Under the pieces are notes generated by a model. It did not search any database and was not told the origin of the DNA. It was given only the letters and a program-made list of their open reading frames with translations. Of a stretch of 64,000 nucleotides of DNA, positions 27,674-63,402 are shown piece by piece. A program made the position numbers and the translations under genes. Source of the DNA: Octopus vulgaris (lineage: Eukaryota). The number at the start of each line of letters is the position of its first letter. Within the stretch, counting starts at the first letter, position 1. The stretch spans positions 35,154,001 to 35,218,000 of the forward strand of contig OX597839.1 of NCBI GenBank assembly GCA_951406725.2. Reading direction: 5' to 3'.

Positions 27674-27793
27674 ATGAATTTAATTGGACGCGAATCAGAG
27701 AAAACATTCCTTCGCAATTTTCTCAAATCAAAGCACCGACTGCTCCAAGTTTATGGTCAACCGTCTGTTGGCAAGACCCGTTTAGTTACAGAA
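27674..27793 (+). CDS. NLR-like STAND NTPase-TPR gene, coding exon 1 (40 aa; start codon and Walker A)
   Basis: Polypyrimidine tract plus AG at 27581-27582. In-frame TGA at 27638 lies upstream of ATG 27674. Encodes MNLIGRESEKTFLRNFL...VYGQPSVGKTRLVTE (pre-P-loop 'IGRE' motif and GxxxxGKT). Donor GAA|GTAAGT, phase 0. Confidence 0.88.
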
Positions 27794-30587
27794 GTAAGTA
27801 GATATTCTCAAAAGACAAAAAAAATGCTAATTTTCATGTCTTATATACAATATTGAACCAATTTAACTCGTTAGCATTCAGATTTCTTCGTCAAATGCTT
27901 GTTAATTTACATCGATTTGAATTAGTCATGCATCATCTCGTAGTGCTGGTGCTTCATATATATATATAGGTTTTGAAGATATTCTTTGTGAATATTCTTT
28001 CTCATTGATTTTTAAATAGATATTTACATCTGCAGGTCAGCTGATCTCTTGTACATACAAACATATATGCATATGTATGCACATACATACAATTTCAGAA
28101 ATCATCCGGCCTTCAGATATGAATATTTCTTTTAAAAATCACTGGCAAAGAGAATATTTAAAACACAAACTTTAAAACCTATAGCTTCTCTTTTTAGATA
28201 CTAAATTTATTTTATGTGTTCATTATTTACAATGGAAGGATAGGTGTCCTCATCTTGTTTGCTGTTACCACAACATTTCAGCTGATGTACTCTCTGGTGG
28301 AATTTCAATCCCCAACCCTTCATTTGACTAAAGGGGTACTCTGTTCTCATTCCTAAGGTGTTCTTTTTTGCTGATGTTATTTTTTCTTTTTTTCTGTTGA
28401 TATTCAATCATCATCGTCATTGAGATTTCAATGATATCATCATCCTCATCATCATCCTCATTTAGCGTCTGTTTTCCATGCTGGCATGGGTTAGATGGAT
28501 TAACTGGAACTGGCATGGCCGGAGAGCTGCACCAAGTTCCAGTCTGGTTTGGCATGGTTTCTATGGTTGGATGCTCTTCCTGACACCAACCACTCCGAAT
28601 GTGTAATGGATGGCAGAGCAACAAGCTGGCCTTCGTGCCGATGGCATGTTAAACACACCATTCAAGCGTGATTATTACCAGTGTCGCTTTACTGGCACGT
28701 GAAACATTTGAACAAGGTCGTCGCCAGTGCCGCTGGACTGGCTCCTTTGAAGGTGGCACGTAAAAAGCACCATTTGGGAATAGCCATTGCCTGTACCACC
28801 AAACTGGCCCTCGTGTTGGTGGCACGTAAAGGCACCCACTACATTCTCGGAGTGGTTGGCGTTAGGAAGGGCATCAAGCTGTAGAAACTCTGCCAAATCA
28901 AGATTGGAGTCTGGTTCGCCAGACCTCAGTCAAATCGTACAACCCATGCTAGCATGGAAAGCGGATGTTAAATGATGATGATGACATTGTAGGGTAGGTG
29001 CAAGGGACCAGATCTGGTCAGTTTGAAAATAAAACGAGTAGGTTGCTTTGACTGGAAATGGCCAGTTTAAACACTAAAGGGTTAAGGTGGTGAACTTGCA
29101 GAATCGTTAGCACATGGGGGGTGGGGGGCATTTCAATTGCCCTTACGTTCTGAGTTCAAATTCCATTGAGGTCAGCTTTGTCTTTCATCCTTCAGCAGTT
29201 GATAAAATAAGTACCAGTTCAATATTGGGGTCAGTGTAATTCACTTACAACCTTCCCTCAAATTTCTGCCCTTGTGCCAAAATTTGGGACACTATATATT
29301 TATATCTACTTAACCTTTTTGATACCAACCTACCAAGGATGCCCCCCCCCCGACCCCCACCTATTATCATGATACATGTTTCCTGTGTTCACTCTTTCAT
29401 TATCATATTTCTATTGAAATACGCTGCCTTCATTTCACGATTTGAAAATCATGAAAATCATAGGCGCAGGGGTGGCTGTGTGGTAAGTAGTTTGCTTACC
29501 AACCACAATGTTCCGGGTTCAGTCCCACTGCGTGGCACCTTGGGCAAGTGTCTTCTACTATAGCCTCGGGCCGACCAAAGCCTTGTGAGTGGATTTGGTA
29601 GGCGGAAACTGAAAAGAAGCCTGTCATATATATAGGTGTATGGGTGTTTGTGTGTCTGTGTTTGTCCCATCAACATCGCTTGACCACCGATGCTGGTGTG
29701 TTTACATCCCTGTAACTTAGCGGTTTGGCAAAAGAGCCCGATAGAATAAGTACTAGGCTTACAAAGAATAAGTCCTGGGGCTGATTTGCTCGACTAAAGG
29801 CGATGCTCCAGCATGGCCGCAATCAAATGACTGAAACAAGTAAAAGAGTAGAGGAAAGAGTAATTTACTAAAGTACCTTCATCTTTATTAAGCTGGTGCT
29901 TGGAACATGAAATAGGATGAAATCTTTGTCCAGTTTAGGCCATTTTGGCTGTTTTGTTGTCACATGTCTGTTGAAATATGCTGGCTTTGTTTAATTTAAT
30001 TTTGAAAATCATGAATTTATTAAAATAACTTTGTCATCATTAAGTTAAATTCACGTGGAATTTTCTCTGGCAGAGCGGGTTTAAGGGATCTAAGTTGCAT
30101 GTTAATTTACTAAATTCTTCATTATTTTAAAAATTGGTACGTAAAAAGCACCAATCGATCTTGGCCGTTGCCAGCCACCCCTGGCACTTAAAAAGCACCC
30201 ACTACACTCTCGGAGTGGTTGGTGTTAGAAAGGGCATCCAGCTGTAGAAACACTGCCAGATCAGACTGGAGCCTGGTTCAGCCTCCCGGCTTCCCAGACC
30301 CCAGTTGAACTGTCCAACCCATGCTAGCATGGAAAACGGACGTTAAACGATGATGATGATGATGAATGGTATTGTATTTTAAAAGAGACATGGTAATAAA
30401 ACGGTTAGTGATTCTCACATCACTGTTTAGTAAATACAGTGAAGTCTGTTTTGCTAATGAGATCTAATAAGACTGGAATATTCTTTGTAAGCCCCGTACT
30501 TATTCTATCGGTCTCTTTTGCCGAACTGCTAAGTGACGGGGACATAAACACACCAGCATCGGTTGTCAAGCAATGCTAGGGGGACAA

Positions 30588-30622
<35 letters not shown>

Positions 30623-30630
30623 CATATATA

Positions 30631-30987
30631 CGACAGGCTTCTTTCAGTTTCCGTCTACCACATCCACTCACAAGGCATTGGTCGGCCCGGGGCTATAGCA
30701 GAAGAGACTTGCCCAAGATGCCACTCAGTGGGACTAAACCCGCAACCATGTGGTTGGTTAACAAGCTACTTACCACACAGCCACTCCAGCACCTATAAAT
30801 ATATATATATATATATATACATATATACGACAGGCTTCTTTCAGTTTCCGTCTACCACATCCACTCACAAGGCATTGGTCGGCCCAGGGCTATAGCAGAA
30901 GAGACTTGCCCAAGATGCCACGCAGTGGGACTAAACCCGCAACCATGTGGTTGGTTAACAAGCTACTTACCACACAGCCACTCCAGC

Positions 30988-31028
<41 letters not shown>

Positions 31029-31190
31029 TACGACAGGCTTCTTTCAGTTTCCGTCTACCACATCCACTCACAAGGCATTGGTCGGCCCAGGGCTATAGCA
31101 GAAGAGACTTGCCCAAGATGCCACGCAGTGGGACTAAACCCGCAACCATGTGGTTGGTTAACAAGCTACTTACCACACAGCCACTCCAGC

Positions 31191-31231
<41 letters not shown>

Positions 31232-32039
31232 TACGACAGGCTTCTTTCAGTTTCCGTCTACCACATCCACTCACAAGGCATTGGTCGGCCCAGGGCTATA
31301 GCAGAAGAGACTTGCCCAAGATGCCACTCAGTGGGACTAAACCCGCAACCATGTGGTTGGTTAACAAGCTACTTACCACACAGCCACTCCAGCACCTATA
31401 AATATATATATATATATATACATATATACGACAGGCTTCTTTCAGTTTCCGTCTACCAAATCCACTCACAAGGCATTGGTCGGCCCGGGCTATAGCAGAA
31501 GAGACTTGCCCAAGATGCCATGCAGTGGGACTGAACCCGCAACCATGTGGTTGGTTAACAAGCTACTTACCACACAGCCACTCCAGCACCTATAAATATA
31601 TATATATATATATACATATATACGACAGGCTTCTTTCAGTTTCCGTCTACCAAATCCACTCACAAGGCATTGGTCGGCCCGGGGCTATAGCAGAAGAGAC
31701 TTGCCCAAGATGCCATGCAGTGGGACTGAACCCGCAACCATGTGGTTGGTTAACAAGCTACTTACCACACAGCCACTCCAGCACCTATAAATATATATAT
31801 ATATATCAAGGCGGCGAGCTGGCAGAAACGTTAGCACGCCGGGCGAAATGCGTAGCCGTATTTCGTCTGCCGTTACGTTCTGGGTTCAAATTCCGCCGAG
31901 GTCGACTTTGCCTTTCATCCTTTCGGGGTTGATAAATTAAGTACCAGTTATGCACTGGGGTTGATGTAATCGACTTAATCTGTTTGCCTGTCCTTGTTTG
32001 TCCCCTCTGTGTTTAGCCCCTTGTGGGTAGTATAGAAAT

Positions 32040-32070
<31 letters not shown>

Positions 32071-32153
32071 TACGACAGGCTTCTTTCAGTTTCCGTCTAC
32101 CAAATCCACTCACAAGGCATTGGTCGGCCTGGGGCTATAGCAGAAGACACTTG
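30631..32153 (-). repeat. Tandem array of SINE-A 5' half (~195-205 bp; 6 full units plus 1 partial), interrupted by a SINE-B at 31808-32040
   Basis: Units start at ~30631, 30828, 31031, 31235, 31429, 31623 and 32073, separated by (TA)n. Confidence 0.92.
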
Positions 32154-32250
32154 AACATGGAAAAATAGATATTAAAATGATGATGATAAACTTTTGCTTC
32201 TTCTTTTGATGGCAATTATTCTACCTTTCGCTTTTCTTCTCATCTTTCAG

Positions 32251-33210
32251 ATCTTGAATGAAATGAAGAGTGATTTCCCTCGGATTTGCTATAAGGTGAT
32301 TCGGAAAGACTGGCCCAAGAAAGAATTCTTCTGTCCCGATGAAAGATTTAAAACATTGCTTGTCGCAGATAATTTTCAAAATATTTTTGGGAAAAATGCT
32401 ACGGAAGACTTTGACGATTTCTGCGAGAAACTAATCACCTGGAACCACGTTAAAGTCATCTTGATACTGAGTGGACCTTCAGAAATGAAGCGCGTTCAGG
32501 GTATCACACTTCATCTAAAACCACTGCAATATTTTGATTCTCTTCACCTTGTTGAACAGTCTTTACCTGCAAATATGAAATATTCAAGAAATCTTAAATC
32601 TTTCTGCTCAAATTTCTGCAATGGTGTGCCTGGAAGGATTGTGTCCTTGTGTGATAAATTGTCTGAATGTCCAGCAGGCACATCATCCAGTGAAATTTTG
32701 GATTTTCTTCAGGAGTCCCAAAATGTTGACAATTTTCTGCCGCACCAATTTCATGAGTCTTTTAAGGAATATCTCCAACAGCTTTCCACGGAACAGCAGC
32801 AAGCTCTCTCTGAGCTGAGTTATTTTCCTGGAAGGTTCAGCCTTCATGACATTATGGCTATGACAAACTGCAAAAGAGAGCAGCAAGCCAAATTCAATCT
32901 GGTTTACCCGCTGATGAAACAAGGCCTGATTAAGCCTACGAACAACAGCTCAACAGAGTTCGTGTTACCACAGATTGTGCATCAGCACTGCCAGAATCAC
33001 ATGACACACATATCCCACGAAAACTGCACGAGGTTGAAGTTTAATCATATTATAGGAGAAGCCCTCATAAAAGCAGAGAAAATCAATGACAAAGGACTTA
33101 TCTATAATGTTGCTGGGATTTTAGATCACAAGTGGGAGAATGTTGCTAAGTTGATTCTAGAAGCCATTCATTCACCTTCAGATGGAGAAACTTTTGAGAT
33201 TTACTGCAAG
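32251..33210 (+). CDS. NLR-like gene exon 2 (320 aa; Walker B, GxP helical domain, winged helix)
   Basis: Acceptor ctttcag| and donor AAG|GTATGT, phase 0-0. Motifs: LLVADNF (Walker B), VKVILILSG (sensor-1 position), LHLKPLQYFDSLHLV, FCNGVPGRI (GxP), LSTEQQQALSELSYFPGRF (winged-helix start). Confidence 0.93.
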
Positions 33211-34018
33211 GTATGTGTGTGTCTATCTTTTACACTTTTACTTGTTTCAGTCACGTGACTGTGGCCATGCTGGAGCACCGCCTTTAGTCGAGCAAATTGA
33301 CCCCATGTTCCTAAAACTAGCTGAATGATAACCAAGTTATTTTACTAAATTCTTTGTTATATTTAAAATTAATTGAAAGAAACACATAGCATCTCAACAG
33401 AAATAGGGTAACAAAAGGGTTAAAATATATAATAGAGAAACAATTCTTAACCCTTTCAATACCAGCCCGGCTGAAACCACCTCTGGCTCTGTAGTAAAAA
33501 TGTCTTGTTTTCTTAAGTTTTGAATTAAAATCTTCCACCAAACCTTAGTCACAATTTACGTTCCTAACATTAGCTTAATGATAACTAAATTATTTTACTA
33601 AATTCTTTGTTATATTTAAAGTAATTGAAAGAAACAAAATAAATATAGTAACGAATATATATAGTAACGAAAGGGTTAAATATAGTAAATAAATATAGTA
33701 ACGAAAGGGTTAAAAGCTACATACTAGCTTAAAAGCTGCCCAAGCTAGTATATTTTTTAACTTTTTTGATGACGAAATAAACACTATGTACTAAGGGTAA
33801 TTAAATTCACAATTTCCTATGAATTTGTGACCGTGTGCCTAACCATGAGGGAGAGGGTCAGAGCAGACCAAATGCTTTGCGAGTATTTCTCATAACTCTC
33901 TCACATTCTTTTCTAACCCACCCAGAGTCAATTGTATCATTCATTGAAGAAGTGGAACAGCAACGAATAACAGAAATTATGCATGCGTAAACGTGTACTA
34001 AATCCATGTTAACATAAG

Positions 34019-34055
<37 letters not shown>

Positions 34056-34792
34056 GTGTGTATGTGTGTGTAGAGGGAAGAGAAGAGATTGGCCTTTAAT
34101 AAATAAATCTGAAATGCCAGTTGAAACTTTGATTCTGTTGACATTCATTCATTCTTCTCTCTCTCTTTCTTCCTCTCTTTCTCCCTCTCTCTCTTCCTCT
34201 CTCTCTCTGTCTCTCTCTTCCTCTGTCTCTCTCTTCCTCTCTCTGTCTCTCTCTCTCTCTCTCTTTCTTCCTCTCTCTCTTTCTTCCTCTCTCTTTCTCC
34301 CTCTCTGTGTCTCTCTCTCTTCCTCTCTCTCTGTGTCTCTCTCTCTTTCTCCCTTTCTCCCTTCCTCTCTCTCCCTCCCTCTTTCTCTCTCTATGTCTCT
34401 CTCTCTTTCCCTTTCTTCCTCTCTCTCTCCCTCTTTCTGTCTCTTTCTCCCCCTCTCTCTTTCTCTCTCTCTCTCTCTCTCTTTCCTCCCTCTCTCTGTC
34501 TCCCTCTGTATTTATGTGTGTACTTAAACATAAGCACATATATTTTCTCAGCAAAGTCTTTAAATATATGAAGCTACTTCTTTCGGTCTCTTTTACTCTT
34601 TTACTTGTTTCAGTCATTTGACTGCGGCCATGCTGGAGCACTGCCTTTTTAGTCAAGCAAATCAACCCCAGGACTTATTCTTTCGAAGCCTAGTACTTAT
34701 TCTATCGGTCTCTTTTGCCGAACCACTAAGTTACGGGGACGTAAACACACCACCATTGGTTGTCAAGCGATGTTGGGGGGACAAACACACAA

Positions 34793-34843
<51 letters not shown>

Positions 34844-35319
34844 CACATACACATATATGTGACGAGGTTCTTTCAGTTTCCATCTACCAAATCCACTCGC
34901 AAGGCTTTGGTCGACCCGAGGCTATAGTAGAAGACACTTGTGCAAGGTGCCACGCAGTGGGACTGAACTCAGAACCATGTGGTTGGTAAACAAGCTGCTT
35001 ACCACACAGCCACGGAAGGACTATCTTAATGACTGACAAGGAAGACAAGCTCCCTAGTGGGGAGATAGTCCTTTTGTGGCTATTGTGGCTATTTCTAGCA
35101 ATGCTGGTACTACTTAGTATCCTCTGTCACATTAGTAGCATCTATAAATTTGCTTTTAGGTTGTTAAATTGCTAATAACTTAGCGGTTCGGCAAAAGAGA
35201 CCGATAGAATAAGTACTAGGCTTACAAAGAATAAGTCCTGGGGTCAATTTGCTCGACTAAAGGTGGTACTCCAGCATGGCCACAGTCAAATGACTGAAAC
35301 AAGTAAAAGAGTAAAGAGT

Positions 35320-36240
35320 TTTATTTTCATCACGTGCTTTCACTTCGCTACCAAGCCCAGCTCTGTGTGCCTTGGGTATGTGCTGTGGTTTGTTGTGGTG
35401 CTCTTATCTTTGCTGTATAGAAAGTGTTTTGCGTAGGATGTGTGCAGTGCCTAGTAGTGCTACTTTCCTTGTTGTTGTTCTTGTTCTTCTTCTCTTCCAC
35501 CTCCTCCTCCTCCTTCTTCTTCTCCTTCTTCTCCTTCTTCTCCTTCTTCTTCTTCTCCTTCTTCACCTTCTTCTTCTTCTTCTTCTTCTTCTTCTTCTTC
35601 TTCTTCTTCTTCTTCTTCTTCTTCTTCTTCTTCTTCTTCTTCTTCTTCTCCTCCTTCTTCTTCTGTCTTATTTTCACCACTTGCTTTCACTGCACTACCA
35701 AGCACGTGCCTTGGGTATGTGCTGTGGTTTGTTGTGGTGCTCTTATCTTTGCTGTATTGAAAGTGTTTTACGTAAGATGTGTGCAGTGCTACTTTCCTTG
35801 TTGTTGTTGTTGTTCTTCTTCTTCTTCTCTTCCACCTCCTCCTCCTCCTCCTCCTCCTCCTTCTTCTTCTTCAGTCTTATTTTCACCACTTGCTTTCACT
35901 GCACGACCAAGCACGTGCCTTGGGTATGTGCTGTAGTTTGTTGTGGTTCTCTTATTTTCACTGTATTGAAAGTGTTCTGCGTAGGATGTGTGCAGTGCCT
36001 GGTTGTGCTATTTCCTGTATGTTATATATACTTGTAAGTCCTGGTGTTTTTGTTATGTATTTCTCTGAATGTTTTTTCATCATGCCTAATGCGCCTATTA
36101 TGATAGGAATTGTTTCTGTTTTTAGACTCCACATTCGAGTTACCTCTATTTCCAGGTCTTTGTATTTTGAAAGTTTCTTCATTTCTTTTAAGGAAATGTT
36201 GTCTTCTGTTGGTATTGATACATCAATTAGAAAGCATTTT
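35320..36240 (-). mobile_element. R4/Dong-clade LINE restriction-like endonuclease C-terminus with triplicated 3' end in (GAA/GAG)n
   Basis: KCFLIDVSIPTEDNISLKEMKKLSKYKDLEIEVTRMW...PIIIGALG...IQEIA..GTAHILRRTLS. The 3' end is repeated at ~35320, ~35666 and ~35875. Confidence 0.85.
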
Positions 36241-36254
36241 TTATTATTATTATT

Positions 36255-37743: not shown

Positions 37744-37897
37744 GTTGCTGTGGAAGCTCGTAGCATCATCAATCTGTGTTACCCTGAGGCTGCCACAGAA
37801 TTCTTCAAGGCAATTCTTGATGCCTCCAAGAAACTTGGCACTGAGAAGCAGAAAGCGCTGTTGATGGTTTCCTATGGACATTCTCTTCAGAGCAGAA
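37744..37897 (+). CDS. NLR-like gene exon 3 (helical linker / first TPR-like helix)
   Basis: Acceptor cctatatag|GTT GCT GTG. Encodes VAVEARSIINLCYPEAATEFFKAILDASKKLGTEKQKALLMVSYGHSLQSR. Donor A|GTAAAA, phase 1, matches the next exon. Confidence 0.85.
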
Positions 37898-39711: not shown

Positions 39712-41530
39712 CGTTGTCATCCGGCATTATCTTGTTAACATCCATTTTCCATGCTGGAATGGGGTTGGACAGTTTGACAGGAGTTGGCCAGCCTGGAAGC
39801 TGTTCAAATTCCAATTGTCTGCTTTGGCATGGTTTCTATGGCTGGATGCCCTTCCTAATATATTTCTTTACTGCCCACAAGGGGCTAAACACAGAAGGGA
39901 CAAACAAGGACAGACAAAGGGATTAAGTCGATTACATCGACCCCAGTGCGAAACTGGTACTTTATTTATCTACCCCCGAAAGGATGAAAGGCAAAGTCGA
40001 CCTCGGCGGAATTTGAACTCAGAACGTAACGACAGACGAAATATGGCTACGCATTTAGCCCGGCGTGCTAACGTTTCTGCCAGCTCGCCGCCGTTGGATG
40101 CCCTTCCTAATGCCAACCACTTTACAGAGTAAGCTGGGTGCTTTTTTTATGTGCCACCAGCATGGGTGCATGTTATGTGCCACCAGCATGGGTGCATGTT
40201 ATGTGCCACCAGCATGGGTGCATGTTATGTGCCACCAGCATGGGTGCATTTTATGTGCCACCAGCATGGGTGCATTTTATGTGCCACCAGCATGGGTGCA
40301 TGTTATGTGCCACCAGCATGGGTGCATGTTATGTGCCACCAGCATGGGTGCATTTTATGTGCCACCAGCATGGGTGCATGTTATGTGCCACCAGCATGGG
40401 TGCATTTTATGTGCCACCAGCATGGGTGCATGTTATGTGCCACCAGCATGGGTGCATGTTATGTGCCACCAGCATGGGTGCATGTTATGTGCCACCAGCA
40501 TGGGTGCATGTTATGTGCCACCAGCATGGGTGCATGTTATGTGCCACCAGCATGGGTGCATGTTATGTGCCACCAGCATGGGTGCATTTTATGTGCCACC
40601 AGCATGGGTGCATGTTATGTGCCACCAGCATGGGTGCATGTTATGTGCCACCAGCATGGGTGCATGTTATGTGCCACCAGCATGGGTGCATTTTATGTGC
40701 CACCAGCATGGGTGCATGTTATGTGCCACCAGCATGGGTGCATTTTATGTGCCACCAGCATGGGTGCATGTTATGTGCCACCAGCATGGGTGCATGTTAT
40801 GTGCCACCAGCATGGGTGCATGTTATGTGCCACCAGCATGGGTGCATTTTATGTGCCACCAGCATGGGTGCATGTTATGTGCCACCAGCATGGGTGCATG
40901 TTATGTGCCACCAGCATGGGTGCATGTTATGTGCCACCAGCATGGGTGCATTTTATGTGCCACCAGCATGGGTGCATGTTATGTGCCACCAGCATGGGTG
41001 CATGTTATGTGCCACCAGCATGGGTGCATTTTATGTGCCACCAGCATGGGTGCATGTTATGTGCCACCAGCATGGGTGCATGTTATGTGCCACCAGCATG
41101 GGTGCATTTTATGTGCCACCAGCATGGGTGCATGTTATGTGCCACCAGCATGGGTGCATGTTATGTGCCACCAGCATGGGTGCATTTTATGTGCCACCAG
41201 CATGGGTGCATGTTATGTGCCACCAGCATGGGTGCATGTTATGTGCCACCAGCATGGGTGCATGTTATGTGCCACCTGCATCTGTAAAGGACAAGCTTGT
41301 ATGTTTGGATGACAGTAATTTTACTTAGCTCGACGTGTCTTCTTGAGTACAGCAAATCTCCACACCTCCTGGTCCCTTGTAATTTCCTTAGCGAGGCCCT
41401 TTGCCTGAGGATCTTTCCTCACCACTTTATCCCACACCTTCCTGGGTCTACCCCTTCCACAGATTCCCTCCACAATTAGCGCTCGGCACTTCTTCATGCA
41501 GCCTCCCTCATCCATATGCATCACCTGCAC
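39712..41530 (-). mobile_element. 5'-truncated RTE-clade LINE (ORF C-terminus, 3' UTR with minisatellite) containing a nested SINE-B
   Basis: 41530-41321 encodes ...VEGICGRGRPRKVWDKVVRKD...GLAKEITRDQEVWRFAV. The 3' UTR equals family C. SINE-B at 39861-40092 is flanked by the 17-bp TSD TGGATGCCCTTCCTAAT (39843-39859 / 40095-40111). Confidence 0.85.
40147..41276. repeat. 26-bp minisatellite, 43 full units plus a partial unit
   Basis: Unit TTATGTGCCACCAGCATGGGTGCAT(G/T); one variable position. Confidence 0.97.
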
Positions 41531-44247: not shown

Positions 44248-44395
44248 ATAGTTTGGCTGTGAAAGAAGCACAATGGCATTTCAAAAGCGCTTTGAGAATT
44301 CTTCAGAATTATGGCTGTGATTATCAATGTTTGCTGATATACAACTATATGAGTCTTAACTACTACAGGCAGGGAAAACTGGAGAAAGGAATAAG
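44248..44395 (+). CDS. NLR-like gene exon 4 (TPR-like)
   Basis: Acceptor ttttgcag|. Encodes NSLAVKEAQWHFKSALRILQNYGCDYQCLLIYNYMSLNYYRQGKLEKGIR. Donor AG|GTATT, phase 1-2. Confidence 0.88.
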
Positions 44396-44427: not shown

Positions 44428-46080
44428 TTTATGACATACATGGGCCATTGTGGGTGTTTTTATGACAGACACAGGTCATTGTGGATGTTTATGACTTACA
44501 CCGATCACTGTTGGTGTTTATGATGCACGAGTCATGATGGATGCTTTTATGACTGACATAGATCATAGTTGGTGTTTATGATATACATTGATCATTGTGG
44601 ATGTTTTTATGACTGACACAGGTCATTGTGGATGTTTATGACTTACACTGATCATTGTTGGTGTTTATGATGCATGAGTCATGATGGATGCTTTTATGAC
44701 TGACATAGATCATAGTTGGTGTTTATGATATACATTGATCATTGTGGATGTTTTTATGACTGACACAGGTCATTGTGGATGTTTATGACTTACACTGATC
44801 ATTGTTGGTGTTTATGATGCATGAGTCATGATGGATGCTTTTATGACTGACATAGATCATAGTTGGTGTTTATGATATACGTTGATCATTGTGGATATTT
44901 TTATGACTGACATTTTATTTTCATGTTGCTCCAGTTCACTCAGCTGTAGAAATGAGTTGCGACGTCACAGGTGCCAAGCTTTATTGGCCCCTTTGCCTTT
45001 CCCTTGGATAACATCAGTGACATGAAGAGGGAAGGCTGGGCAACTGCTGGTCTTCCAGAAACAACCTTGCCTGGACTTGTGCCTCAGAGGGGAACTTCCT
45101 AGGTGCAGCCCCATGGTCATGATTGACCAAAGGGGGTCTTTACACGTGTGTGTATGCATCCTTGTCTCAAGATGATGCTGTGGTTGTAAATGAGTGTCAC
45201 CTTCATAGAAGCAGTGTCATTTGTTTCCAGTCTTCCATGGTATTGGTGTTTATGATGCACATGGGTTGTTGTATATGTTTTTATGACTTACACAGATCAT
45301 TGTTGGTGTTTATGACACACAGTGGTCATTGTGGATGTTTATGACACACAGGGGTCATTGTGGATGTTTATGACACATGAGTCATTGTGGATGATTCTAT
45401 GACTTACACAGATCACTGTTGGTGTTTATGATACACAGGGGTCATTGTGGATGTTTATGACATACATGGGTCATTGTGGATGTTTATGACACATGAGTCA
45501 TTGTGGGCGCTTCTATGACTTACACAGATCACTGTTGGTGTTTATGATACACAGGGGTCATTGTGGATGTTTATGACATACATGGGTCATTGTGTATGAT
45601 TCTATGACTTACACAGATCACTGTTGGTGTTTATGATACACAGGGGTCATTGTGGATGTTTATGACATACATGGGTCATTGTGGATGTTTATGACACATG
45701 GTCATTGTAGATGTTTATGACACATGAGTCATTATGGGCGCTTCTATGACTTACACAGATCACTGTTGGTGTTTATGATACACAGGGGTCATTGTGGATG
45801 TTTATGACATACATGGGTCATTGTGGATGATTCTATGATTTACACAGATCACTGTTGGTGTTTATGATACACAGGGGTCATTGTGGATGTTTATGACATA
45901 CATGGGTCATTGTGGATGTTTATGACATACATCGATCATTGTGGATGCTTCTATGACTTACACAGATCACTGTTGGTGTTTATGATACACAGGGGTCATT
46001 GTGGATGTTTATGACTTACACAGACTACTGTTGGTGTTTATGACATACTTGGGCTATTGTGGGTGTTTTTATGACACACA
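44428..46080. repeat. ~29-bp minisatellite with 147-bp higher-order repeat, interrupted by a SINE fragment (~44915-45240)
   Basis: Unit ~TTATGACACACAGGTCATTGTGGATGT. Near-identical blocks start at 44464, 44611 and 44758. Confidence 0.9.
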
Positions 46081-46520: not shown

Positions 46521-46630
46521 GGCTGCAGAGAAAGCTCTAGAAACCACTGTCTTTGATCGAGATAGAGCCGATGTTGAGCACGCTAAGATCTACTCTTATG
46601 TGCACCTGACACACAACCTTATCTTTGCTG
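46521..46630 (+). CDS. NLR-like gene exon 5 (TPR-like; not in ORF track)
   Basis: Acceptor cttcattaag|. Encodes AAEKALETTVFDRDRADVEHAKIYSYVHLTHNLIFAG. Donor G|GTGAGT, phase 2-1. Confidence 0.87.
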
Positions 46631-48826: not shown

Positions 48827-50762
48827 TAAACTTGACATTTTTCAACAAACAGAAAAATATTGGGTTGGTGCATAGTTATTGTGGCTTTTTTTCAACGAAA
48901 ACAATAACTATTTAACAAAAACATCTTTAAATGACGGTTTGACCGCCTGCCGAGCAAATGGGAAGCAGTAATTGACGTATTAGGTTGTCAAGAATGTTCT
49001 TGCAGAATTTTAAATTTTGGTTTTAAATGATGTATTTTCAAATTAATTTTCGTTAAATTACTTTGAGTTTATATATCATTTTAAAACCCGTTTTTCGCTC
49101 TACCTAGTCATGTTACTCCTTTTTCTTTTTGGATAATTAGGCCATTTTTTAAACACTGCCAGATCAGACTGGAACCTGGTGCAGCCGCCTGGCTTCCCAG
49201 ACCCCGGTCGAACTGTCCAACCCATGCTACCATGGAAAACGGACGTTAAACGATGATGATATATTTCTGCAGAAAAGGGGGTTGAATCAACACAGAATGT
49301 TGGGCATATTTGCCCTTTTCGGATCTTTCGGTTTGAACGGCAGCTTTTTCTAGCGGTGTCATATGAAATTGTCACCCATAATTATGACCCTAGTATCGAC
49401 CTATTGCATTTCAATCTGTTTTAGGGTTAGGGAGAAGGGTATCTTTTTTTCTTCAGAAATGTAAATAAACCCAATCTGTTTCTTGAACGAGGGATATATT
49501 CATACGGCACAGAATGTTTTTTTTACCTCAATAGACGTCATTGATTGGTTGAAATTGCAGAAATTGAAGAAGAAAAACAACAAATATCTTACAAACTATA
49601 GAATTTTCTCAATAAAGCCAAGAGAAAAAGATGTTTTATAAACACATTCTACCAGTATATGAAGTTTAAAAGTGTTTAGTTACGTGGAAATTATTTTAAA
49701 AAACTGCCGGTCAAACCTTTTCTATACTATTGGCAGCAACATTCTTGGGTTACAAACTATACTAAATGCCACATGGTATTTGTCTTTTATCTATTTCAGT
49801 CATTAGATTGTGGCCATGCTGGAGCAATACCTTGAAAGGTTTTAGTCAAATAAACCGATCCCAATACAAATGTTTCTCTTTTTTTTTTTTAGTCTGGTAC
49901 TTATTGTATTGTTTTCTTTTGCTGAACCACTAAGTCATGTGGGTTCATAAACAAACCAACATCATTTGTCAAACAATGGAGTTGGGGCAGTGGGGGAGAT
50001 GCATACACACACACACACACACACACAAAGTAATCTTTTCTCTGTATATATATGCTTTCAGAAATAAATTTCATTTTAATGGCTCTGAAGAAGCTATCTA
50101 ATGTTGCACAAGCACCCATCTCTGAGTGCATTGCCTCTTATAACTGAAACAGCTGTCAGCTAATGAAAATGACTGCATAACTCTTATTCTTTTCGACATT
50201 TTATAATTAATGTATACAACATGCTTCCACAGATTTTGTCTACCAAATCCATTCTCAATGTATTGGTTGACTTGGAGCTATGATAGATGACACATGCATT
50301 AGAACTGAACCTAAAATGATATGGTTGCAAAGCAAGTTTCTTATCCACACGCCCATGCCTGCACCTATCTTTGATTTTTATTTTCTTTATTATGCAGTCT
50401 AGTGGAAAGAAGGAGCTGTGTTCTTTATGGCGGGTGAGTTTAATACAGTTGTCTCGCTTGATTAGTAACGCTTCGACGGCTGGAGGAAAGGAAGGAAAAG
50501 ACACGCATAACGAACATACCCATCGTGACCACCCGTCTGATAAGGGTGCACCAAGCACATGCCTCACAGCCAAATATGCGCACCATGGTGATCTCATATC
50601 AAGATATACAGTGCATGACCTTGCAGGTGGAGCCCAGTTAGAATACACACACATACACACTTCGCTCACACACACACACATACATTCACATGCACACACA
50701 ATCATATTGTGTTTTATTCTATTTTTCTAAATTCTTTCTTTTCTCTTCCTTTCTTCCCTCAG

Positions 50763-50876
50763 GAAACCATTCCAAAGCTGGGCAAGTGCTGCACGAACAA
50801 CTGACCCTGGTCGGAGAATCTGGACATCCAGCCGTCTGTTATATGCTAAACAACGTTGGACTTAATATTGAACGCT
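50763..50876 (+). CDS. NLR-like gene exon 6 (TPR-like)
   Basis: Long polypyrimidine tract plus AG at 50761-50762. Encodes GNHSKAGQVLHEQLTLVGESGHPAVCYMLNNVGLNIER (HP..LNNVG TPR signature). Donor T|GTAAGA, phase 1-1. Confidence 0.88.
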
Positions 50877-51887: not shown

Positions 51888-52031
51888 CTGGTGGTTTACC
51901 GAATTTGGCGCTGCAGTTCTATCTGTCTTCTCTGTTCAGCAAAAGAAGCATCTCTTGCGTGCAAGAGCACATTCTCGTTCCGACGCTGTGCAATGTTGCC
52001 GGACAGTTTTCCAAGAACAAACTTCGACATG
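51888..52031 (+). CDS. NLR-like gene exon 7 (TPR-like)
   Basis: Acceptor cttcgcag|. Encodes SGGLPNLALQFYLSSLFSKRSISCVQEHILVPTLCNVAGQFSKNKLRH. Donor G|GTAAGT, phase 1-1. Confidence 0.88.
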
Positions 52032-55002: not shown

Positions 55003-55037
<35 letters not shown>

Positions 55038-55426
55038 TTCATCCCCTCTTCCTCTTCACGTAAAAACTCCTCAAAGTGGTGCTCCAGCATGGCCGCAGCC
55101 TAACGACTGAAACAAGTAAAAGGGAAAAGATAACAGACGGATTAATTAATCAATTTGGCCTTATCTGCCTTGCTTGGTATTTTTGTGATTTCAAACCATC
55201 ACTGTCAGCTAATTGTTTTCCATGACCCCAACTAATTGTCAACTAATTATTTGCATAACTCACTTGATTAATCTTATTAAACCCATCACAGTTTGCAGCG
55301 TTTTGTTGGGGTTTTTTTGTATGTTCCTGTTTTTCCTTTTTTTTTTATCTTCTCTTTTCCTCCCCCTCCTTCTCATCCTATTTTTCTAACTCTCCGCTCA
55401 CACCAATCTGATTATCATGTGTACTA

Positions 55427-55484
<58 letters not shown>

Positions 55485-55530
55485 ATTTCCCTGTGGTATC
55501 TGTATATCTACCTTTCTATATTTCTATCTC

Positions 55531-56070
55531 CGAAAAGCTCTATCTGCGACGATTTCATCTCAATCAAAGGAGAGGGGCTTTTTCCGTCCGGGTTGTGGAT
55601 CCATGGAATAAGCTGCCGGACGAGATGGTGAAGATGCCGACGACCGCTCGGTTCAAAGTTTCTCTTGACCACAAATGGCCTGAACTCTTTGCATGAACAC
55701 CCTCCCTGTACATAACTCCATCTCCCCCTACATGGCCTTGCTTTTTGCTTTTTGAGCTAAAAAATTAACTTAACTTAACATGATGGTTCGACTTAAGAGC
55801 GTTGGCTGCGGGGCCACTCCGAAAAGCTCTATCTGCGATGATTTCATCTCAATCGAAGGAGAGGGGCTTTCTCCGTCCAGGTTGCGGATCCGTGGAATAA
55901 ACTGCCGGACGAGATAGTGAAGATGCCGACGACCGCTCGGTTCAAAGTCTCTCTTGACCAGAAATGGCCTGAACTCTTTGCATGAACACCCTCCCTGTAC
56001 ATAACTCCATGTCCCCCCTACATGGCCTTGCTTTTTGCTTTTTGAGCCAAAAAAATTAACTTAACTTAAC
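55531..56070 (+). mobile_element. Two tandem CR1/L2-group LINE 3' ends with (TTAAC)n tails
   Basis: Encode (RGHS)EKLYLRRFHLNQRRGAFSVRVVDPWNKLPDEMVKMPTTARFKVSLDHKW. Third copy at 53065-53252. Confidence 0.85.
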
Positions 56071-56475
56071 TATCTATCTATATCTATTGTTTCTTTTATC
56101 TCTATATCTATCTCTCTCTCAATGTCCTTCTATCTATCCCTATCCATCTATCTTCCTCTATGTCTCTAAGTCCTTCTCTCTCTTTTTCTATCTATCTATC
56201 ATTTTCTCTATTTCTATATCTTTATCTCTCAATATCCATCCATCTATCTATCTCTACCTATCTATCTGTCTCTATCTATCTATGTCTCTCTCTCTTTCTA
56301 TTTATCTCTCTTTATCTCTGTTTCTATTTTTATCTCCCTCAATGTATCTTTCTCTCTCTCAATGTACCTCTCTCTTTCTCTCAATGTCTCTCTCTCTCTC
56401 TATTTCCCTCTTGATCTATCTTTATTTCTCTCTATATCTATTTTTATGTCTCTCTTTCTCTCTCTCTTTCACTAG

Positions 56476-56587
56476 ATTTAGCTCTGAACTTCTTACACGA
56501 AGCAAAAGAGATCCGCGCACGGACTGGCTGGGTTCACCCCTACACGGCACTTGTGATGTGGAATATCGGCATGGTGACCATGAGAAA
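56476..56587 (+). CDS. NLR-like gene exon 8 (TPR-like; coding frame not in ORF track)
   Basis: Acceptor tttcactag|. Encodes DLALNFLHEAKEIRARTGWVHPYTALVMWNIGMVTMR (A..IR...HP.TA...NIG, kinesin-light-chain-type TPR). Donor AA|GTAAGA, phase 1-2. Confidence 0.88.
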
Positions 56588-57531
56588 GTAAGACTTTCAT
56601 CTCATTTCTGTTGGTGTGAAGAGGTGGGGGTTACTGTGTGGGCAGGTCGTGGAGGTGGTGGTGAAGGCAAGTTGGAGGGTGGGAGCTGGGTGCATTGCAG
56701 CAATGGGGGAAGAGGGTGGCAGTGGTAGGAATATTCAGCAATCACCTGAGATTGAAATTTGCTAGAATATTACCCAAATATAGGCACAGGAGTGGCTGTG
56801 TGGTAAGTAGCTCGTTTACCAACCACATGGTTCCGAGTTTAGTCCCACTGCATGGCACCTTGGGCAAGTGTCTTCTACTATAGCCTCGGGCTGACCAAAG
56901 CCTTGTGAGTGGATTTGGTAGACGGAAACTGAAAGAAGCCCATCGTATATATGTATATATATATGTATGTATGTGTTTGTGTGTCTGTGTTTGTCCCCCT
57001 AGCATTGCTTGACAACCGATGCTGGTGTGTGTACGTCCCCATTACTTAGCGGTTCGGCAAAAGAGACCGATAGAATAAGTACTGGGCTTACAAAGAATAA
57101 GTCTCGGGGTCGATTTGCTCGACTAAAGGCGGTGCTCCAGCATGGCCGCAGTCAAATGACTGAAACAAGTATAAGAGTAAAGAGTAAATGATTAAAAATA
57201 AAATCTAACCAATCACAACTCCGCCTAGAACTGACTCCAGCAAATAATCCCGTCTTTTTTGCACCTTTCCGTCTGAGCCTAAACACCTGTATAAATTCAG
57301 CACACCTTGGCTACTTAACCAGAGAGCTTTGGGATGCAGCAGAGAGAGCAGATATATGGCAAACAGATGCTGACCCAAGCTGACATCAATCATAGCAAAT
57401 GATCGACGGCAGCTAACGCTCTGACTGCTATTACAATTACACCAAGAACAACAACATTCAAACTCTCTCAACATTTTTGTTGTTTGTTGTAATGACAGTA
57501 TTTGTTATTGGTGTACAAGATAAAAATTCTG

Positions 57532-57941
57532 GGATCTTTTCGGTTTGAACGGCAGTTTTTAACATAATTTCTAGGTAACTAAAAAATGTTAAACTTCGTA
57601 TACTGGTAGAATGTGTTTATAAAACATCTTTTTCTCTTGGCTTTATTGAGAAAATTCTATAGTTTGTAAGATATTTGTTGTTTTTTTTCTTCAATTTCTG
57701 CAATTTCAACCAATCACTGATGTCTATTGAGGTGATAAACATTCTGTGCCGTATGAATATGTCCCTCATTTGAGAAAGAGATTGGATTTATTTACATTTC
57801 TGAAGAAAAAAAGATACCCTTCCCCCACCCCTAACCCTAAAACAGATTGAAATGCAATAGATCGATACTGGGGTCATAATTATGGGTGACAATTTCATAT
57901 GACACCGCTAGAAAAAACTGCCATTCAAACCGAAAAGATCC
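57532..57941. mobile_element. MITE with GG-starting ~28-bp TIRs and 8-bp TSD (Merlin-like; hAT not excluded)
   Basis: AAATTCTG|GGATCTTTTCGGTTTGAACGGCAG ... CTGCCATTCAAACCGAAAAGATCC|AAATTCTG. Other copies at 49321-49716 and 24812-25075 (partial). Confidence 0.8.
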
Positions 57942-58458
57942 AAATTCTGTTAGCAAGAGTCTCAATGGATTTTGCCACCTTCTTCTTCTTCTTCATACTG
58001 GGGTCTCGGTGTAAACCAAAATATATGTTTTAAAGATTGGGAAAGTAGCTCCCTAAAGAACTTTGAAATGATGCATATAAACTGGGAGAGGTTACATGCA
58101 ACGAATCAGCAAAACTGGAGTAAAATCCGAAAAGGTGCTGTTTCAGAAAATTACTATTTGTAAATCTCACAACGGGCATGGCTGTGTGGTTAGGGAGCTT
58201 GCTTCCTAGCTACATGGTTTCGGGTTCAGTCCCACTGCATGGCACTTTGGGTAGGTGTCTTCCACTATAGCCTCGAGCCGACCGGAGCTTTGTGATTGAA
58301 TTTGGTAGGTGGAAGTTGCTGCTGTGTGTGTATATGTGCGTTTAGCTGCTCAGTGCCTCTCCGAAAGAGAGAAAGAGGGATCAGTGACTGGTTGTCACTT
58401 TGAAAACTATATATTTCGAACGGGAACTTGGCAGCGCCACCTCTAGCCGAACAATTAT

Positions 58459-58503
58459 TCTGTGCTGATGAAGGGAAATAACCCAGAAATTGCGATACAC
58501 AGA
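58459..58503 (+). ncRNA. Minimal type-I hammerhead ribozyme motif, canonical CUGAUGA core, sense to the host gene intron
   Basis: TCTGTG CTGATGA A GGG AAATAA CCC A GAAA TTGCGA TA CACAGA. Confidence 0.68.
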
Positions 58504-59075
58504 TATTGTTTTGAGCTGAGTTGGGGTGCTAGATTCCCTTGTTCGAAAATATAAGGACACGTAAAAGGGCACCATTCGAGCATGATCATTACCAACGTCA
58601 CCTTACTGGCACCTGTGCCAGCGGCATGTGTAAAAAGATTCGAGCGAGGTCATTGCCAGTACCTATTTCTTTACTACCCACAAGGGGCTAAATACAGAGG
58701 GGACAAACAAGGACAGACAAACGGATTAAGTCGATTATACCGACCCCAGTGCGTAACTGGTACTTAATTTATCGACCCTGAAAGGATGAAAGGCAAAGTC
58801 GACCTCGGCGGAATTTGATGTCAGAACATAGCTGAAGACGAAATACCGCTTAGCATTTCGCCCGGCATGCTAATGTTTCTGCCAGCTCGCCGCCTGTACC
58901 GTCTGACTGGCACGTAAAAGCACCCACTACACTCTCAGAGTGGTTGGCGTTAGGAAGGGCATTCAGCTGTAGAAACTTTGCCAGATCAAGATTGGAGCCT
59001 GATGCAGCCATCTGGTTCGCCAGCCCTCAGTCAAAATCGTCCAACCCATGCCAGCATGGAAAGCAGACATTAAAC

Positions 59076-59113
<38 letters not shown>

Positions 59114-60394
59114 CAGATCGTGTCATATAGCCAACTGGAGACAATGTCTCCTGGGGCTAAATTACAGCAACATTCGTCCTAAACCAGGACTGCCATGTTA
59201 TGTTGGCAAATAATTTTTACTACAAAGGTGCTGCTTTATTTGAAGATATCAAGCAGAAATATGCAGTGACAAAAAGAGAGGCAAGAAAGTGTTTGCTTGT
59301 GGCCGACGATCTTTGCCTCCATGTTTGTGATGCTTATAACCTCATTTGTCTCTCCCAAGCTAGAGAGTTAGTCACAAAGAGAAGCACTTATTTAGCCCTT
59401 CCCTACTCTCTCCAGTTACACTTACTCTCTATCAAACTATTTCACTCTGTTTATAACATGATCAGCAAAAGTAAATATGGGTTGAGTTGCTCGCACAAAA
59501 ATGTGTCAGCTTTCACAAGTAAATTCAGTGTTTTTGTGGCACAAATATAAAAAAAATTTGTAAGTCTGTAGCTGAGCTAAAAGTCATCTCCAGTTACATG
59601 GCATAAAACTATGTATGTCACAATTTACAAGTCTCTAGCTGAACTCAAAAGCTTCCAGTTACATAATATAAATCTATGGAAAAATTTATAAATATTTAGC
59701 TGAACTAAAAAGTCATTTCCAGTTACATGGCCTAAAACTATGTATGTCAAAATCTACAAGTCTCTAGCTGAACTCAAAAATTTCCAGTTACATAATATAA
59801 ATCCATGGAAAAATTTATAAATATTTAGCTGAACTAAAAAGTCATTTCCAATCACAAACGTATAGACTGTCTCTAATTGTCTTGAAGTAATTTTTGTAAG
59901 CTGTAAATATTTTATTTTATAAAAATTTCCTCTGTGGTGGTTCCAAATCAAATTCGTGAATAACTCTGGCTTATTTATTAATCTCTATAGGTAAATAATT
60001 TTTGATTTTTTAAAATATATTTTATCTTTATTTAAACATTTAATTCTGTCTGTATATAACAGTAATTCTTTACACTAGGCACAAGGCCCGAAATTTTGGG
60101 GGAGAGGACCAGTCGATTAGATCGACCCCAGTACGCAACTGGTACTTAATTTATCGACCCCGAAAGAATGAAAGGCAAAGTCGACCTCGTCCTAAGTTGC
60201 AAATGTTGTTAAGAGGTCACTGGATTATATTACGTCAATTTTTTTTCATGTATTGTTTGTGTGTTTGTGGGTTGTTTGTTTTACCTCATTTGGAGTCCCT
60301 GCGTGTAGAGTCTGTTGATGCTGCTGCTGGGGGGTGAAAGATGCTCGATGAACGAGTCAGCAATCTTCGTTTCTGTGGCTGTGTGGTATGTTGC

Positions 60395-60457
60395 ACGTGT
60401 GTGTGTGTGTGTGTGTAGGTTTACATGTGCATGTATGTATGTTTATGTGTGTGAGTG

Positions 60458-60488
<31 letters not shown>

Positions 60489-60940
60489 ATGTTTATATGT
60501 GCATGTGTGTATGTATATGTGTGTGAGTGTATATATATATATATATATATATATGCGCTTGTGTGTGTGTGTATGTATATGTGTGTGAGTGTATGTATAT
60601 ATATATATGCGCTTGTGTGTGTGTGTATGTTTATGTGCTTGTATGTATGTATATGTGTGTGAGTGTATATATATATATATATATATGTGTGTGCTTGTGT
60701 GTGTGTATATATATTTATGTGTGCTTGTGTATGTATTTATATGTGCATGTATGTGTGTGTGTATATGTTTATATGTGCTTGTGTGTGTGTATGTTTATAT
60801 GTCCATGTATGTATATGTGCGAGTGTGTATATATATGTGTGTGTGCGTGTGCTTATGTGTATGTATGTCTATATATATATTTATATGTATGTGTGTGTAT
60901 ATATATGTTTATATGTGCATGTATGTATATTTGTGTGTGG
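60395..60940. repeat. (TG)/(TA) compound microsatellite
   Basis: Direct inspection. Confidence 0.95.
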
Positions 60941-61319
60941 TTATGAGGATGTGGCTGTTTGGTAAGAAGATTGCTTCCCAACCACATGGTTCCAGGTTCA
61001 ACCCCATTGCGTAGTACCCTGGGCAAGTGTCTTCTGCTATAGCCCTGGGTTAACTAATACCTTGGGAGAGAACTTGGGATGTGAAAACAATATTAAAACT
61101 CTGTAGACAGTGGCAAGCTGGCAGAATCGTTAACCTGCCAGTCAAAATACTTAGTGGCATTGTGTCCATCTTCACATCCCGAGTTCAAATTCCACCAAGG
61201 CCAGCTTTGCCTTTCATCCTTTCAGGGTCAATAAATTAAGTACCAGTAAAACACTGGTATCAATGTAATCGACTATTCCCCTTCCCCAAATTTCAGGCCT
61301 TGTGCCTAAAATAGAAAGG

Positions 61320-61354
<35 letters not shown>

Positions 61355-61404
61355 CATTATTATTATTATTATTATCATTATTATTATTATTATTATCATC
61401 ATTA

Positions 61405-61435
<31 letters not shown>

Positions 61436-61691
61436 TATTATTATTACCACCTAAGGTGGCAAGCTGGAAGAATCGTTAACCTGCTGAGTTGGGGTGCTAG
61501 ATTCCCTTTAGCAGCGTTGTATCTGTTTTCACATTCTGAGTTCAAACTCCACTGAGGTTGACTTTGCCTTTCACCCTTTCGGGGTCAATAAAATAAGTAC
61601 CAGTTGAACACTGGCGTTGATGTAATTAACTCACCCTCTCCCCCAAAACTGTTGCCCTTCTGGCAAAATTTTAAACCATTGTTGTTGTTGA

Positions 61692-61725
<34 letters not shown>

Positions 61726-62160
61726 GAGTGAGAGAGCAGTTCATGCCATCAAAGTGACACTGGGGTAAAATATACGAAGCCCAGTATACCCATCATGACT
61801 ACCCGTCTGATAAGGGTACACTAGGCACATGCATCACAACCATATGTGTGCATGACATGGTGATCTCATATCAAGATAAACAGCGCGTGACCTTGCAGGT
61901 GGGGCCCAGTTAGAATTTTCTTCTGGTCAAGTAACCCATCCCACTCGAAAGGTCCCTAAACATCATTATTATTGTTGTTGTTGTTTTATTATTATTTTGT
62001 CTGTCTTTACGTTCTGAGGTCAAATTCCGTTAAGGTCCACTTTGCCTTTCATCCTTTCCGAGGTCAATGAAATAAGTACCAGTTGAACAATGCACTTGAC
62101 TTACCCCATCCCCTGAAATTGCTGGCCTTGTGTCAAAATTAATAACGAACAATGTAAATC

Positions 62161-62930
62161 GTGCTGGTGACACGTAAAAAGCACCATCCGAACGTGGCCT
62201 TTTGCCAGCGTGCTCTGGCCCCTGTGCTGGTGGCACATAAAAGTACCAACCGATCATAGCTGTTTCTCAGCGTACTCTGGCCCCTGTGCTGGTGGCAACA
62301 TAAAAGTACCAACCGATCATAGCTGTTTCTCAGCGTACTCTGGCCCCTGTGCTGGTGGCACATAAAAGTACCAACCGATCATAGCTGTTTCTCAGCGTAC
62401 TCTGGCCCCTGTGCTGGTGGCACATAAAAGTACCAACCGATCATAGCTGTTTCTCAGCGTACTCTGGCCCCTGTGCTGGTGGCACATAAAAGTACCAACC
62501 GATCATGGCTGTTTCTCAGCGTACTCTGGCCCCTGTGCTGGTGGCACATAAAAGTACCAACCAATCATAGCTGTTTCTCAGCGTACTCTGGCCCCTGTGC
62601 TGGTGGCACATAGAAGTACCAACCGATCATGGCTGTTTGTCAGCGTGCTCTGGCCCCTGTGCTGGTGGCACATAGAAGTACCAACCGATCATGGCTGTTT
62701 GTCAGCGTACTCTGGCCCCTGTGCTGGTGGCACATAAAAGTACCAACCAATCATAGCTGTTTGTCAGCGTGCTCTGGCCCCTGTGCTGGTGGCACATAAA
62801 AGTACCAACCGATCATGGCTGTTTGTCAGCGTACTCTGGCCCCTGTGCTGGTGGCACATAGAAGTACCAACCGATCATGGCTGTTTGTCAGCGTGCTCTG
62901 GCCCCTGTGCTGGAGGCACATAAAAAGTAC
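62161..62930 (+). repeat. 62-bp tandem repeat (~12 units) expanded inside a family C element
   Basis: Unit GTGCTGGTGGCACATAAAAGTACCAACCGATCATAGCTGTTTCTCAGCGTACTCTGGCCCCT, followed by the normal family C tail to 63103. Confidence 0.93.
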
Positions 62931-63140
62931 CCACTACACTCACGGAGTGGTTGGCGTTAGGAAGGACATCCAGCTGTAGAAACACTGCCAGATCAGAGTG
63001 GAGCCTGGTGAGGCCTCCTGGCTTCCCCGACCCCGGCCAAACCGTCCAACCCATGCTAGCATGGAGAACGGACGTTAAAAGATGATGATGATGATGATGA
63101 TGTAATAATTAACTGTAAGTTTCACCTGTCCATATTGCAG

Positions 63141-63402
63141 AGGCTGCTGTGAGGAGGCTCTTCCATTCCTCTGCGAAGCCAACAATTTGTACAACCAGGT
63201 GCATCCAAACCACTATGTCAATGCAGAGGTGAAGATTTGGCTGGCGCACTGCTTGCATTTAGTAGGTGATAAATCAGAAGCAGAGAGGGTCCTGTTGGAG
63301 GCTTTGGTGAACAAGGACAGGTATTTGTCGCTCTGTCCACAGAGTGAAGCTGTCAGCTGTACCCTTGAGCATCTTGTCAGACTGAACATAGGTAACCGAC
63401 AG
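63141..63402 (+). CDS. NLR-like gene exon 9 (TPR-like; gene continues beyond window)
   Basis: Acceptor attgcag|. Encodes KGCCEEALPFLCEANNLYNQVHPNHYVNAEVKIWLAHCLHLVGDKSEAERVLLEAL...GNRQ. Donor CAG|GTAAGC, phase 2-0. Confidence 0.88.

Follow-up and report, generated by a model that had tools for sequence, protein, structure and literature searches.

STAND proteins that join a nucleotide-binding NTPase module to a sensor of tetratricopeptide repeats (TPRs) have been described both with and without a fused effector. In PH0952, considered together with MalT (PDB 6MFV; PMC6468293), a nucleotide-binding domain, a helical domain, a winged-helix domain, an arm and TPRs follow in that order, and PH0952 reportedly carries an N-terminal ArsR-like effector that was removed for crystallization. 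Fungal STANDs of the NWD2/HET-S type and fungal NB-ARC-TPR NLRs lack a fused effector, and the studies concerned propose signaling in trans (PMC3321046, PMC9815663), the NWD2/HET-S pair being the precedent (PMC3321046), and count over 11,000 short N-termini in fungi (PMC9815663). Clustered NB-ARC-TPR candidates are reported from brown algae (PMC3341825) and corals (PMC4083563); the coral NACHT/NB-ARC-TPR and cnidarian or bivalve 'nephrocystin-3-like' proteins are likewise animal STAND-TPR proteins with lineage-specific tandem expansion, and those described there carry death-fold or glycosyltransferase domains (PMC4083563). A further study also counts as effector-less two-thirds of the NLRs in sponge clade A and every arthropod NLR, but sponge NLRX and arthropod NACHT-LRR proteins form a separate NTPase clade with a different repeat type (PMC3879445). 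Here a gene of this kind is described from Octopus vulgaris, in a stretch of 64,000 nucleotides (GenBank assembly GCA_951406725.2, contig OX597839.1, positions 35,154,001 to 35,218,000 of the forward strand), hereafter the window, whose own numbering is used below. Its product is an effector-less STAND-TPR protein that, at about even probability, acts as an NLR-like intracellular sensor or as a scaffold or hub, signaling in trans to a separate partner.

The octopus protein shares the domain order of PH0952, has no counterpart of its ArsR-like effector, and adds a C-terminal cap with a CxxC motif and a long tail. Its neighbors in the Atlas include basidiomycete STAND-TPR clusters, but it differs from the fungal NWD2 type in having neither an N-terminal amyloid motif (there is no N-terminal extension, only three residues preceding the GR that ends the hhGR motif) nor an adjacent effector gene in the flanks scanned. 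Unlike the coral and cnidarian proteins, it carries no death-fold or glycosyltransferase domain, while the octopus family does combine an NB-ARC-type module and TPRs with tandem clustering. Since NACHT and LRR give no Pfam match, it is not an animal NLR in the strict sense, and the N-terminal effector of a tripartite NLR-like receptor is absent.

The architecture proposed in the first-pass annotation, an NB-ARC/STAND-type NTPase followed by TPRs, was borne out by structure prediction and homology. A predicted model of 807 residues (predicted local distance difference test score, pLDDT, 66.5; 7 sequences in the alignment) contains a P-loop alpha/beta domain, a helical domain, a winged-helix region and about nine helical hairpins (residues 374 to 765). 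Its top Foldseek match is the STAND-TPR protein PH0952 (E 8e-10; next match 2.4e-5), with Roq1, Apaf-1, NRC2 and CED-4 among further matches. The NTPase module of a paralogue, compared by VIA-align, matches ZAR1 (Z 14.9, root-mean-square deviation 3.4, 226 residues aligned), tied with Cdc6/Orc1 and other AAA+ proteins; STANDs are placed in the Cdc6/Orc1 clade in a published analysis (PMC8195603). An arm and a C-terminal repeat sensor are both present: the repeats match TPR_12 (E 2e-12), and their nearest counterparts are those of LGN and kinesin light chain (LGN TPR: Z 18.5, root-mean-square deviation 7.6, 313 aligned). The Pfam NB-ARC gathering score is passed by 9 of the 30 homologues scanned. 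A predicted complex of the window gene's NTPase module with that of a paralogue on C23, modelled without alignments, scored 0.00, a value that speaks neither for nor against an interaction.

The nucleotide-switch motifs are retained in part. The hhGR motif (LIGR) and Walker A, GxxxxGK[T/S] (GQPSVGKT), are intact, and a GxP helical domain followed by a winged helix was found, with CNGVPG, LSYFPGRF and LxxQGLI motifs that align across the family and a helix-strand pattern over this region in the model. Walker B (LLVADN), listed without qualification in the first-pass annotation, keeps its first Asp; its second acidic position holds Asn, which many homologues share (FDN), compared with IFDD in a group of octopus paralogues. 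On the aligned sequences, the octopus branch has lost two further switch residues, the sensor-1 Arg and the His of the MHD motif.

The gene model underlying this protein was exact as first drawn. Nine coding exons in the window, all on the forward strand, total 2124 nt, or 708 codons with no stops, and the eight introns are all GT-AG with phases 0, 0, 1, 2, 1, 1, 1 and 2, followed by phase 0 after exon 9. Exon 1 (27674..27793) encodes the hhGR motif and Walker A; exon 2 (32251..33210), Walker B, the degenerate sensor-1 strand (ILILSG), GxP (NGVPG), the winged helix lacking the MHD His, and the beginning of the arm, whose helices continue in exon 3 (37744..37897). The TPRs are encoded by exons 4 (44248..44395), 5 (46521..46630), 6 (50763..50876), 7 (51888..52031), 8 (56476..56587) and 9 (63141..63402). 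Intron 9 begins at 63403..64000 and runs past the window end to a tenth exon (L013:1540-4281, ~1.5 to 4.3 kb beyond it), which was found on extending the model and which ends the reading frame, giving a predicted protein of 1621 aa. The bounds first given for the gene are also incomplete at the other end, as the transcript extends upstream at least to 7820.

The orthologue is Octopus sinensis LOC115224678 (RefSeq XP_036369719, P0001, 1710 aa), the same gene, annotated but uncharacterized and unnamed, which is 99% identical in the folded part and differs over the 708 positions by 5 substitutions and one 12-residue cassette. A paralogue of ~30% identity has identical intron phases and nearly the same internal exon lengths (157/148/110/114/144/112/265, versus 154/148/110/114/144/112/262 in the window gene). 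Because the O. sinensis product is near-identical and a paralogue this distant keeps phases and exon lengths, the model is not a product of chance, and it is confirmed as real and correctly drawn. Sequencing contigs were checked at the two junctions of exon 1, where splicing evidence of the kind called for by the first-pass annotation was obtained; the remaining junctions rest on the agreement with orthologue and paralogue.

Two features of the models of this gene concern alternative products. A second NCBI model, the misnamed O. vulgaris 'kinesin light chain 4-like' (P0024), has the substitutions of the window and skips exon 2, a phase 0-0 exon that bears most of the NTPase module; such skipping would yield a nearly TPR-only isoform and was not seen in four sequencing runs. 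A 36-nt cassette (50398..50433, forward strand) encodes the 12 extra residues in the O. sinensis and P0023 models, and the window genome has an in-frame TAG where these models have Trp; the cassette may be a poison exon, or the TAG a candidate for editing from stop to Trp.

Repeat-like DNA makes up 66% of the gene span (judged against the DNA fetched at that point), including intronic satellites at 40147-41281 (26-bp unit, 44 copies) and 45297-46080 (29-bp unit, 27 copies) and six copies of a 203-bp unit resembling a short interspersed element at 30612-31806. An open reading frame (ORF) at 59161-59547, protein-like at first view, was rejected as intronic and without a match.

The absence of an N-terminal effector, the central claim of the first-pass annotation, was upheld by transcript evidence. 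Spliced contigs, presumed to be RNA, from four runs of four studies span 27583-27793 (one run from 27625 only) and join exon 1 to exon 2 in all four runs. In three of the four, exon 1 is also joined to a non-coding exon 19.7 kb upstream; the upstream part of the contigs maps uniquely to 7820..7849 (forward strand), the 3' end of a 5' untranslated region (UTR) exon lying just 5' of a GT donor at 7850. The coding exon thus starts at 27583 (a boundary seen in three runs) with a 5' UTR part, 27583..27673, in which an in-frame TGA (27638-27640) stands 36 nt before the ATG in the same exon, as had been noted. No letter change and no indel was found at this TGA in any of the four runs, by which stop-codon editing and frameshifting there were ruled out, and a second in-frame stop (TGA, 7830-7832) lies ~20 nt before the upstream junction, within the 30 visible upstream letters. 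With the first TGA intact and another in-frame stop ahead of the junction, no N-terminal effector is fused to the NTPase, and since the upstream frame is closed by stops, the predicted protein starts at the hhGR motif itself (MNLIGR). All four RefSeq isoforms of the O. sinensis gene start at the same Met.

Searches of masked upstream regions by tblastx and blastn revealed no upstream coding exon conserved among three octopus lineages, only repeats. An out-of-frame upstream ORF of 11 codons (27642..27677, forward strand) has a stop TGA that overlaps the main ATG; its start resembles the start of the paralogues, and three paralogue copies on C23 (at 42170437, 42337769 and 42492942) with a one-base deletion have the identical 11-codon arrangement and overlap. 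It may mark an eroded ancestral N-terminus or serve translational control.

The first-pass annotation had also suggested a signaling domain beyond the window, and no such folded C-terminal effector was found. Exon 10 encodes 913 residues, an ~87-residue helical cap with the CxxC motif and then ~830 low-complexity residues containing ten 27-30-residue repeats, with no Pfam match. The tail is absent in paralogues of the tandem cluster described below, and 13 of the 14 rows in the branch with the octopus genes have the cap, compared with 3 of 18 others.

The lack of an effector proved to be widespread. Full-length relatives were retrieved by a profile search of 1.84 billion representative proteins. 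Among 152 proteins examined, 61 match the NTPase-module profile, and 40 start with Met and have a complete module. At most 45 residues precede the NTPase module in 32 of these 40, a count from a set that includes the profile seeds and in which predicted N-termini may be short by error. Eight depart from this: an amphioxus protein bearing a DED, two proteins with long N-termini without a Pfam domain, and five weakly scoring outsiders; such weakly matching proteins have HEPN or patatin domains, many more TPRs and long separate branches. Lack of an effector thus appears to be the default of a wide invertebrate family, not a cephalopod peculiarity. Of 20 clusters looked up, 17 could be named: 14 molluscs (gastropods, bivalves, cuttlefish), a hemichordate, a crinoid and amphioxus. 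Word-index searches returned octopods and two close relatives only, and a cuttlefish-type subfamily (P0068) gave just two weak matches, in the TPR region, in a restricted search. In a quickly built tree of 46 rows, drawn from its midpoint, Argonauta and other proteins group with the octopus genes in one clade (support 100) that adjoins gastropod and bivalve proteins (88), and the members that retain the MHD His or bear a DED sit in the other half. One amphioxus member has an N-terminal DED and a second has a DED and a C-terminal Death domain.

Exon 2 has 18 matches in the octopus genome: the window gene, one on the sequence designated C24, and 16 on C23 within ~0.55 Mb. Exon 1 was found for 14 of the C23 copies, and in all of these a Met lies ~20 residues N-terminal to the hhGR motif; the Walker A and B motifs of the C23 copies are intact where found. 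Eight of the 16 have a frameshift or no exon 1 found; in four of these eight the lesion is a one-base indel within a C run, upstream of an in-frame Met at which translation may restart; alternatively, the indel may be an assembly error. For the 14 close copies, a set from which copies 15 and 16 were excluded for their divergence, nonsynonymous diversity (pN) is 0.027 in the NTPase module, 0.013 in the arm, 0.061 in the TPRs and 0.057 in the cap. The TPR excess over the NTPase module (2.3 times) was reached by 0 of 2000 permutations, and synonymous diversity (pS) is also higher in the TPRs. Nearest neighbors switch from exon to exon; no shuffling of one repeat per exon was shown. The array evolves by birth and death with exchange among copies. 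Long ORFs of retroelement and Pif1-helicase type lie inside the array (L057:6995-9667, L083:7546-9891, L062:2036-2788).

The window gene, in comparison, is the single-copy conserved orthologue of an Argonauta protein. The C24 locus (L026:6950-9878, L027, L028; near 10.77 Mb) represents a third lineage, with an in-frame stop upstream of the start, a highly divergent winged-helix region and a retained CxxC cap. A NACHT profile matched the genome twice, a lower bound since intron-split domains are missed (C17:46057963 and C19:45022485, within open frames 1333 and 781 aa long); an NB-ARC profile gave no matches and is uninformative, as it misses this family too.

By the proposed mechanism, the TPR solenoid would bind a protein ligand, upon which the STAND protein would open and oligomerize, and the oligomer would signal in trans to a partner encoded by another gene, most likely a component of a death-fold pathway. 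Nucleotide binding is suggested by the intact Walker A and the first Walker B Asp. In NLRs the MHD His locks ADP, according to a preprint (bioRxiv 10.64898/2026.09.02.748808), and the sensor-1 Arg contacts ATP in a plant study, where it is missing from functional TNLs that oligomerize (PMC8813719). The octopus ADP latch would then be weak or absent; in PH0952/MalT, arm and TPR contacts also hold the module closed (PMC6468293), and by analogy such contacts may keep the octopus protein off although the His is lacking. We infer the immune role and the partner, the amphioxus DED and Death fusions being the sole direct pointer to a pathway.

Several observations weigh against an NLR-like sensor signaling in trans. 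The sensor-1 Arg, found in 7 of 26 aligned family rows, is absent (ILILSG); so is the MHD His (FVLPQ), present in 11 of 26 rows and in none of the octopus-containing branch. Pfam NB-ARC does not match P0001, paralogues reach 16-18 bits against a gathering score of 23.5, and AAA_16 matches P0001 only weakly. Clamp loaders head the Foldseek matches of the NTPase-only model of the paralogue, in which the winged helix stays below a pLDDT of 50. The window gene is 55-62% identical to the Argonauta protein in the nucleotide-binding domain, winged helix, arm and TPRs, unlike a fast-evolving receptor, and in the C23 copies TPR pN/pS is 0.67 (confidence interval 0.49-0.95), below 1 and compared with 0.52 in the NTPase module (p 0.19), so that positive selection is not shown. 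The DED-bearing members sit on a distant branch. Among 109 flanking ORFs scanned (from 197 non-family ORF groups of at least 95 aa), no member of a death-fold, TIR, caspase or pore family turned up; the matches were transposon proteins and one tetraspanin, a tetraspanin-family ORF at L024:4412-5062, ~55 kb upstream of the window start.

Several of these points favor a domesticated pseudo-switch, in which the NTPase is decaying and the protein is a constitutive TPR scaffold for some cellular task other than immunity, as in the animal P-loop-repeat proteins of NPHP3, TANC and NWD1 type. The MHD His is absent from 12 of 12 rows of the octopus branch and present in 11 of 14 others, Walker B is eroded in several gastropod and bivalve members, the window gene is a single conserved copy whose TPRs are nearest LGN and kinesin light chain, and model P0024 skips the main NTPase exon in frame. 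Against this stand the retained Walker A, first Walker B Asp and GxP, the intact Walker motifs of the C23 copies, the joining of exon 1 to exon 2 in every run, a paralogue array that behaves like an immune family, and the reported oligomerization of plant TNLs without the sensor-1 Arg (PMC8813719); decay of this kind is unlikely, at somewhat better than one chance in four. That the signal leaves in cis through the tail, with clustered motifs or repeats recruiting adaptors or forming a condensate, is more doubtful still. The tail is long and repetitive and has a few short islands in common with Argonauta, and low-complexity, mutually unrelated tails occur in many family members, but identity to Argonauta is 25%, tails from different lineages do not align, no Pfam domain was matched, and the RHIM-like core [IV]Q[IVLC]G was not found in P0001, P0002 or P0004. 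Moreover, the C23-type paralogues and many homologues stop right after the cap, so the tail cannot be the general output of the family.

A hidden N-terminal effector, whether supplied by a further upstream exon, by read-through of the stop or by A-to-I editing at the TGA, is largely refuted and very improbable. The reading of the leader weakly resembles the open leader of paralogue copy 16 (post hoc; peptide p 0.009, DNA p 0.05), and 300-440 nt of the 5' part of the contigs lie outside the visible sequence. Any frame in those letters, however, cannot reach the NTPase via the mapped junction, which was the one upstream junction seen, with its in-frame stop ~20 nt before it, and an in-frame effector exon spliced downstream of the stop at 27638 was not found in the four runs. 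The intact TGA, the lack of a conserved upstream coding exon, the RefSeq isoforms and the 32 of 40 homologues that likewise begin at the NTPase all tell against it.

Within the sensor-or-hub reading with trans signaling, the single, conserved and long-tailed window gene is more likely a fixed node (a hub or regulator), and the tail-less C23 copies variable sensors, a division that is a hypothesis. The most extended version, considered improbable, is an octopus NLR-like network in which 16 recombining, tail-less sensors would act through one long-tailed hub on death-fold adaptors in trans, built from an old invertebrate STAND-TPR family that is effector-less by default and has shed the ADP latch, in an animal with only two NACHT exons found. 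Such a sensor-helper design would have arisen independently of the plant NRC and mammalian NAIP-NLRC4 networks.

The gene model itself was already in RefSeq, and effector-less NLR-like proteins are known from fungi, sponges and arthropods. The family, however, is apparently undescribed: no description of the gene, its locus identifiers or the family was found in the literature, although supplements of genome and transcriptome papers could list these loci, and nothing bearing on this STAND-TPR family was found in PMC13712769, PMC12258605 and PMC10844198, searched by passage. Annotation leaves its members unnamed or labels them kinesin light chain-like or nephrocystin-3-like. A single octopus genome holds at least 18 such loci, and there are relatives across molluscs, hemichordates, echinoderms and amphioxus. 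Intracellular immune sensors of cephalopods appear to be little charted, and this gene offers a concrete candidate for how a STAND protein may signal without a fused effector and without the MHD latch.

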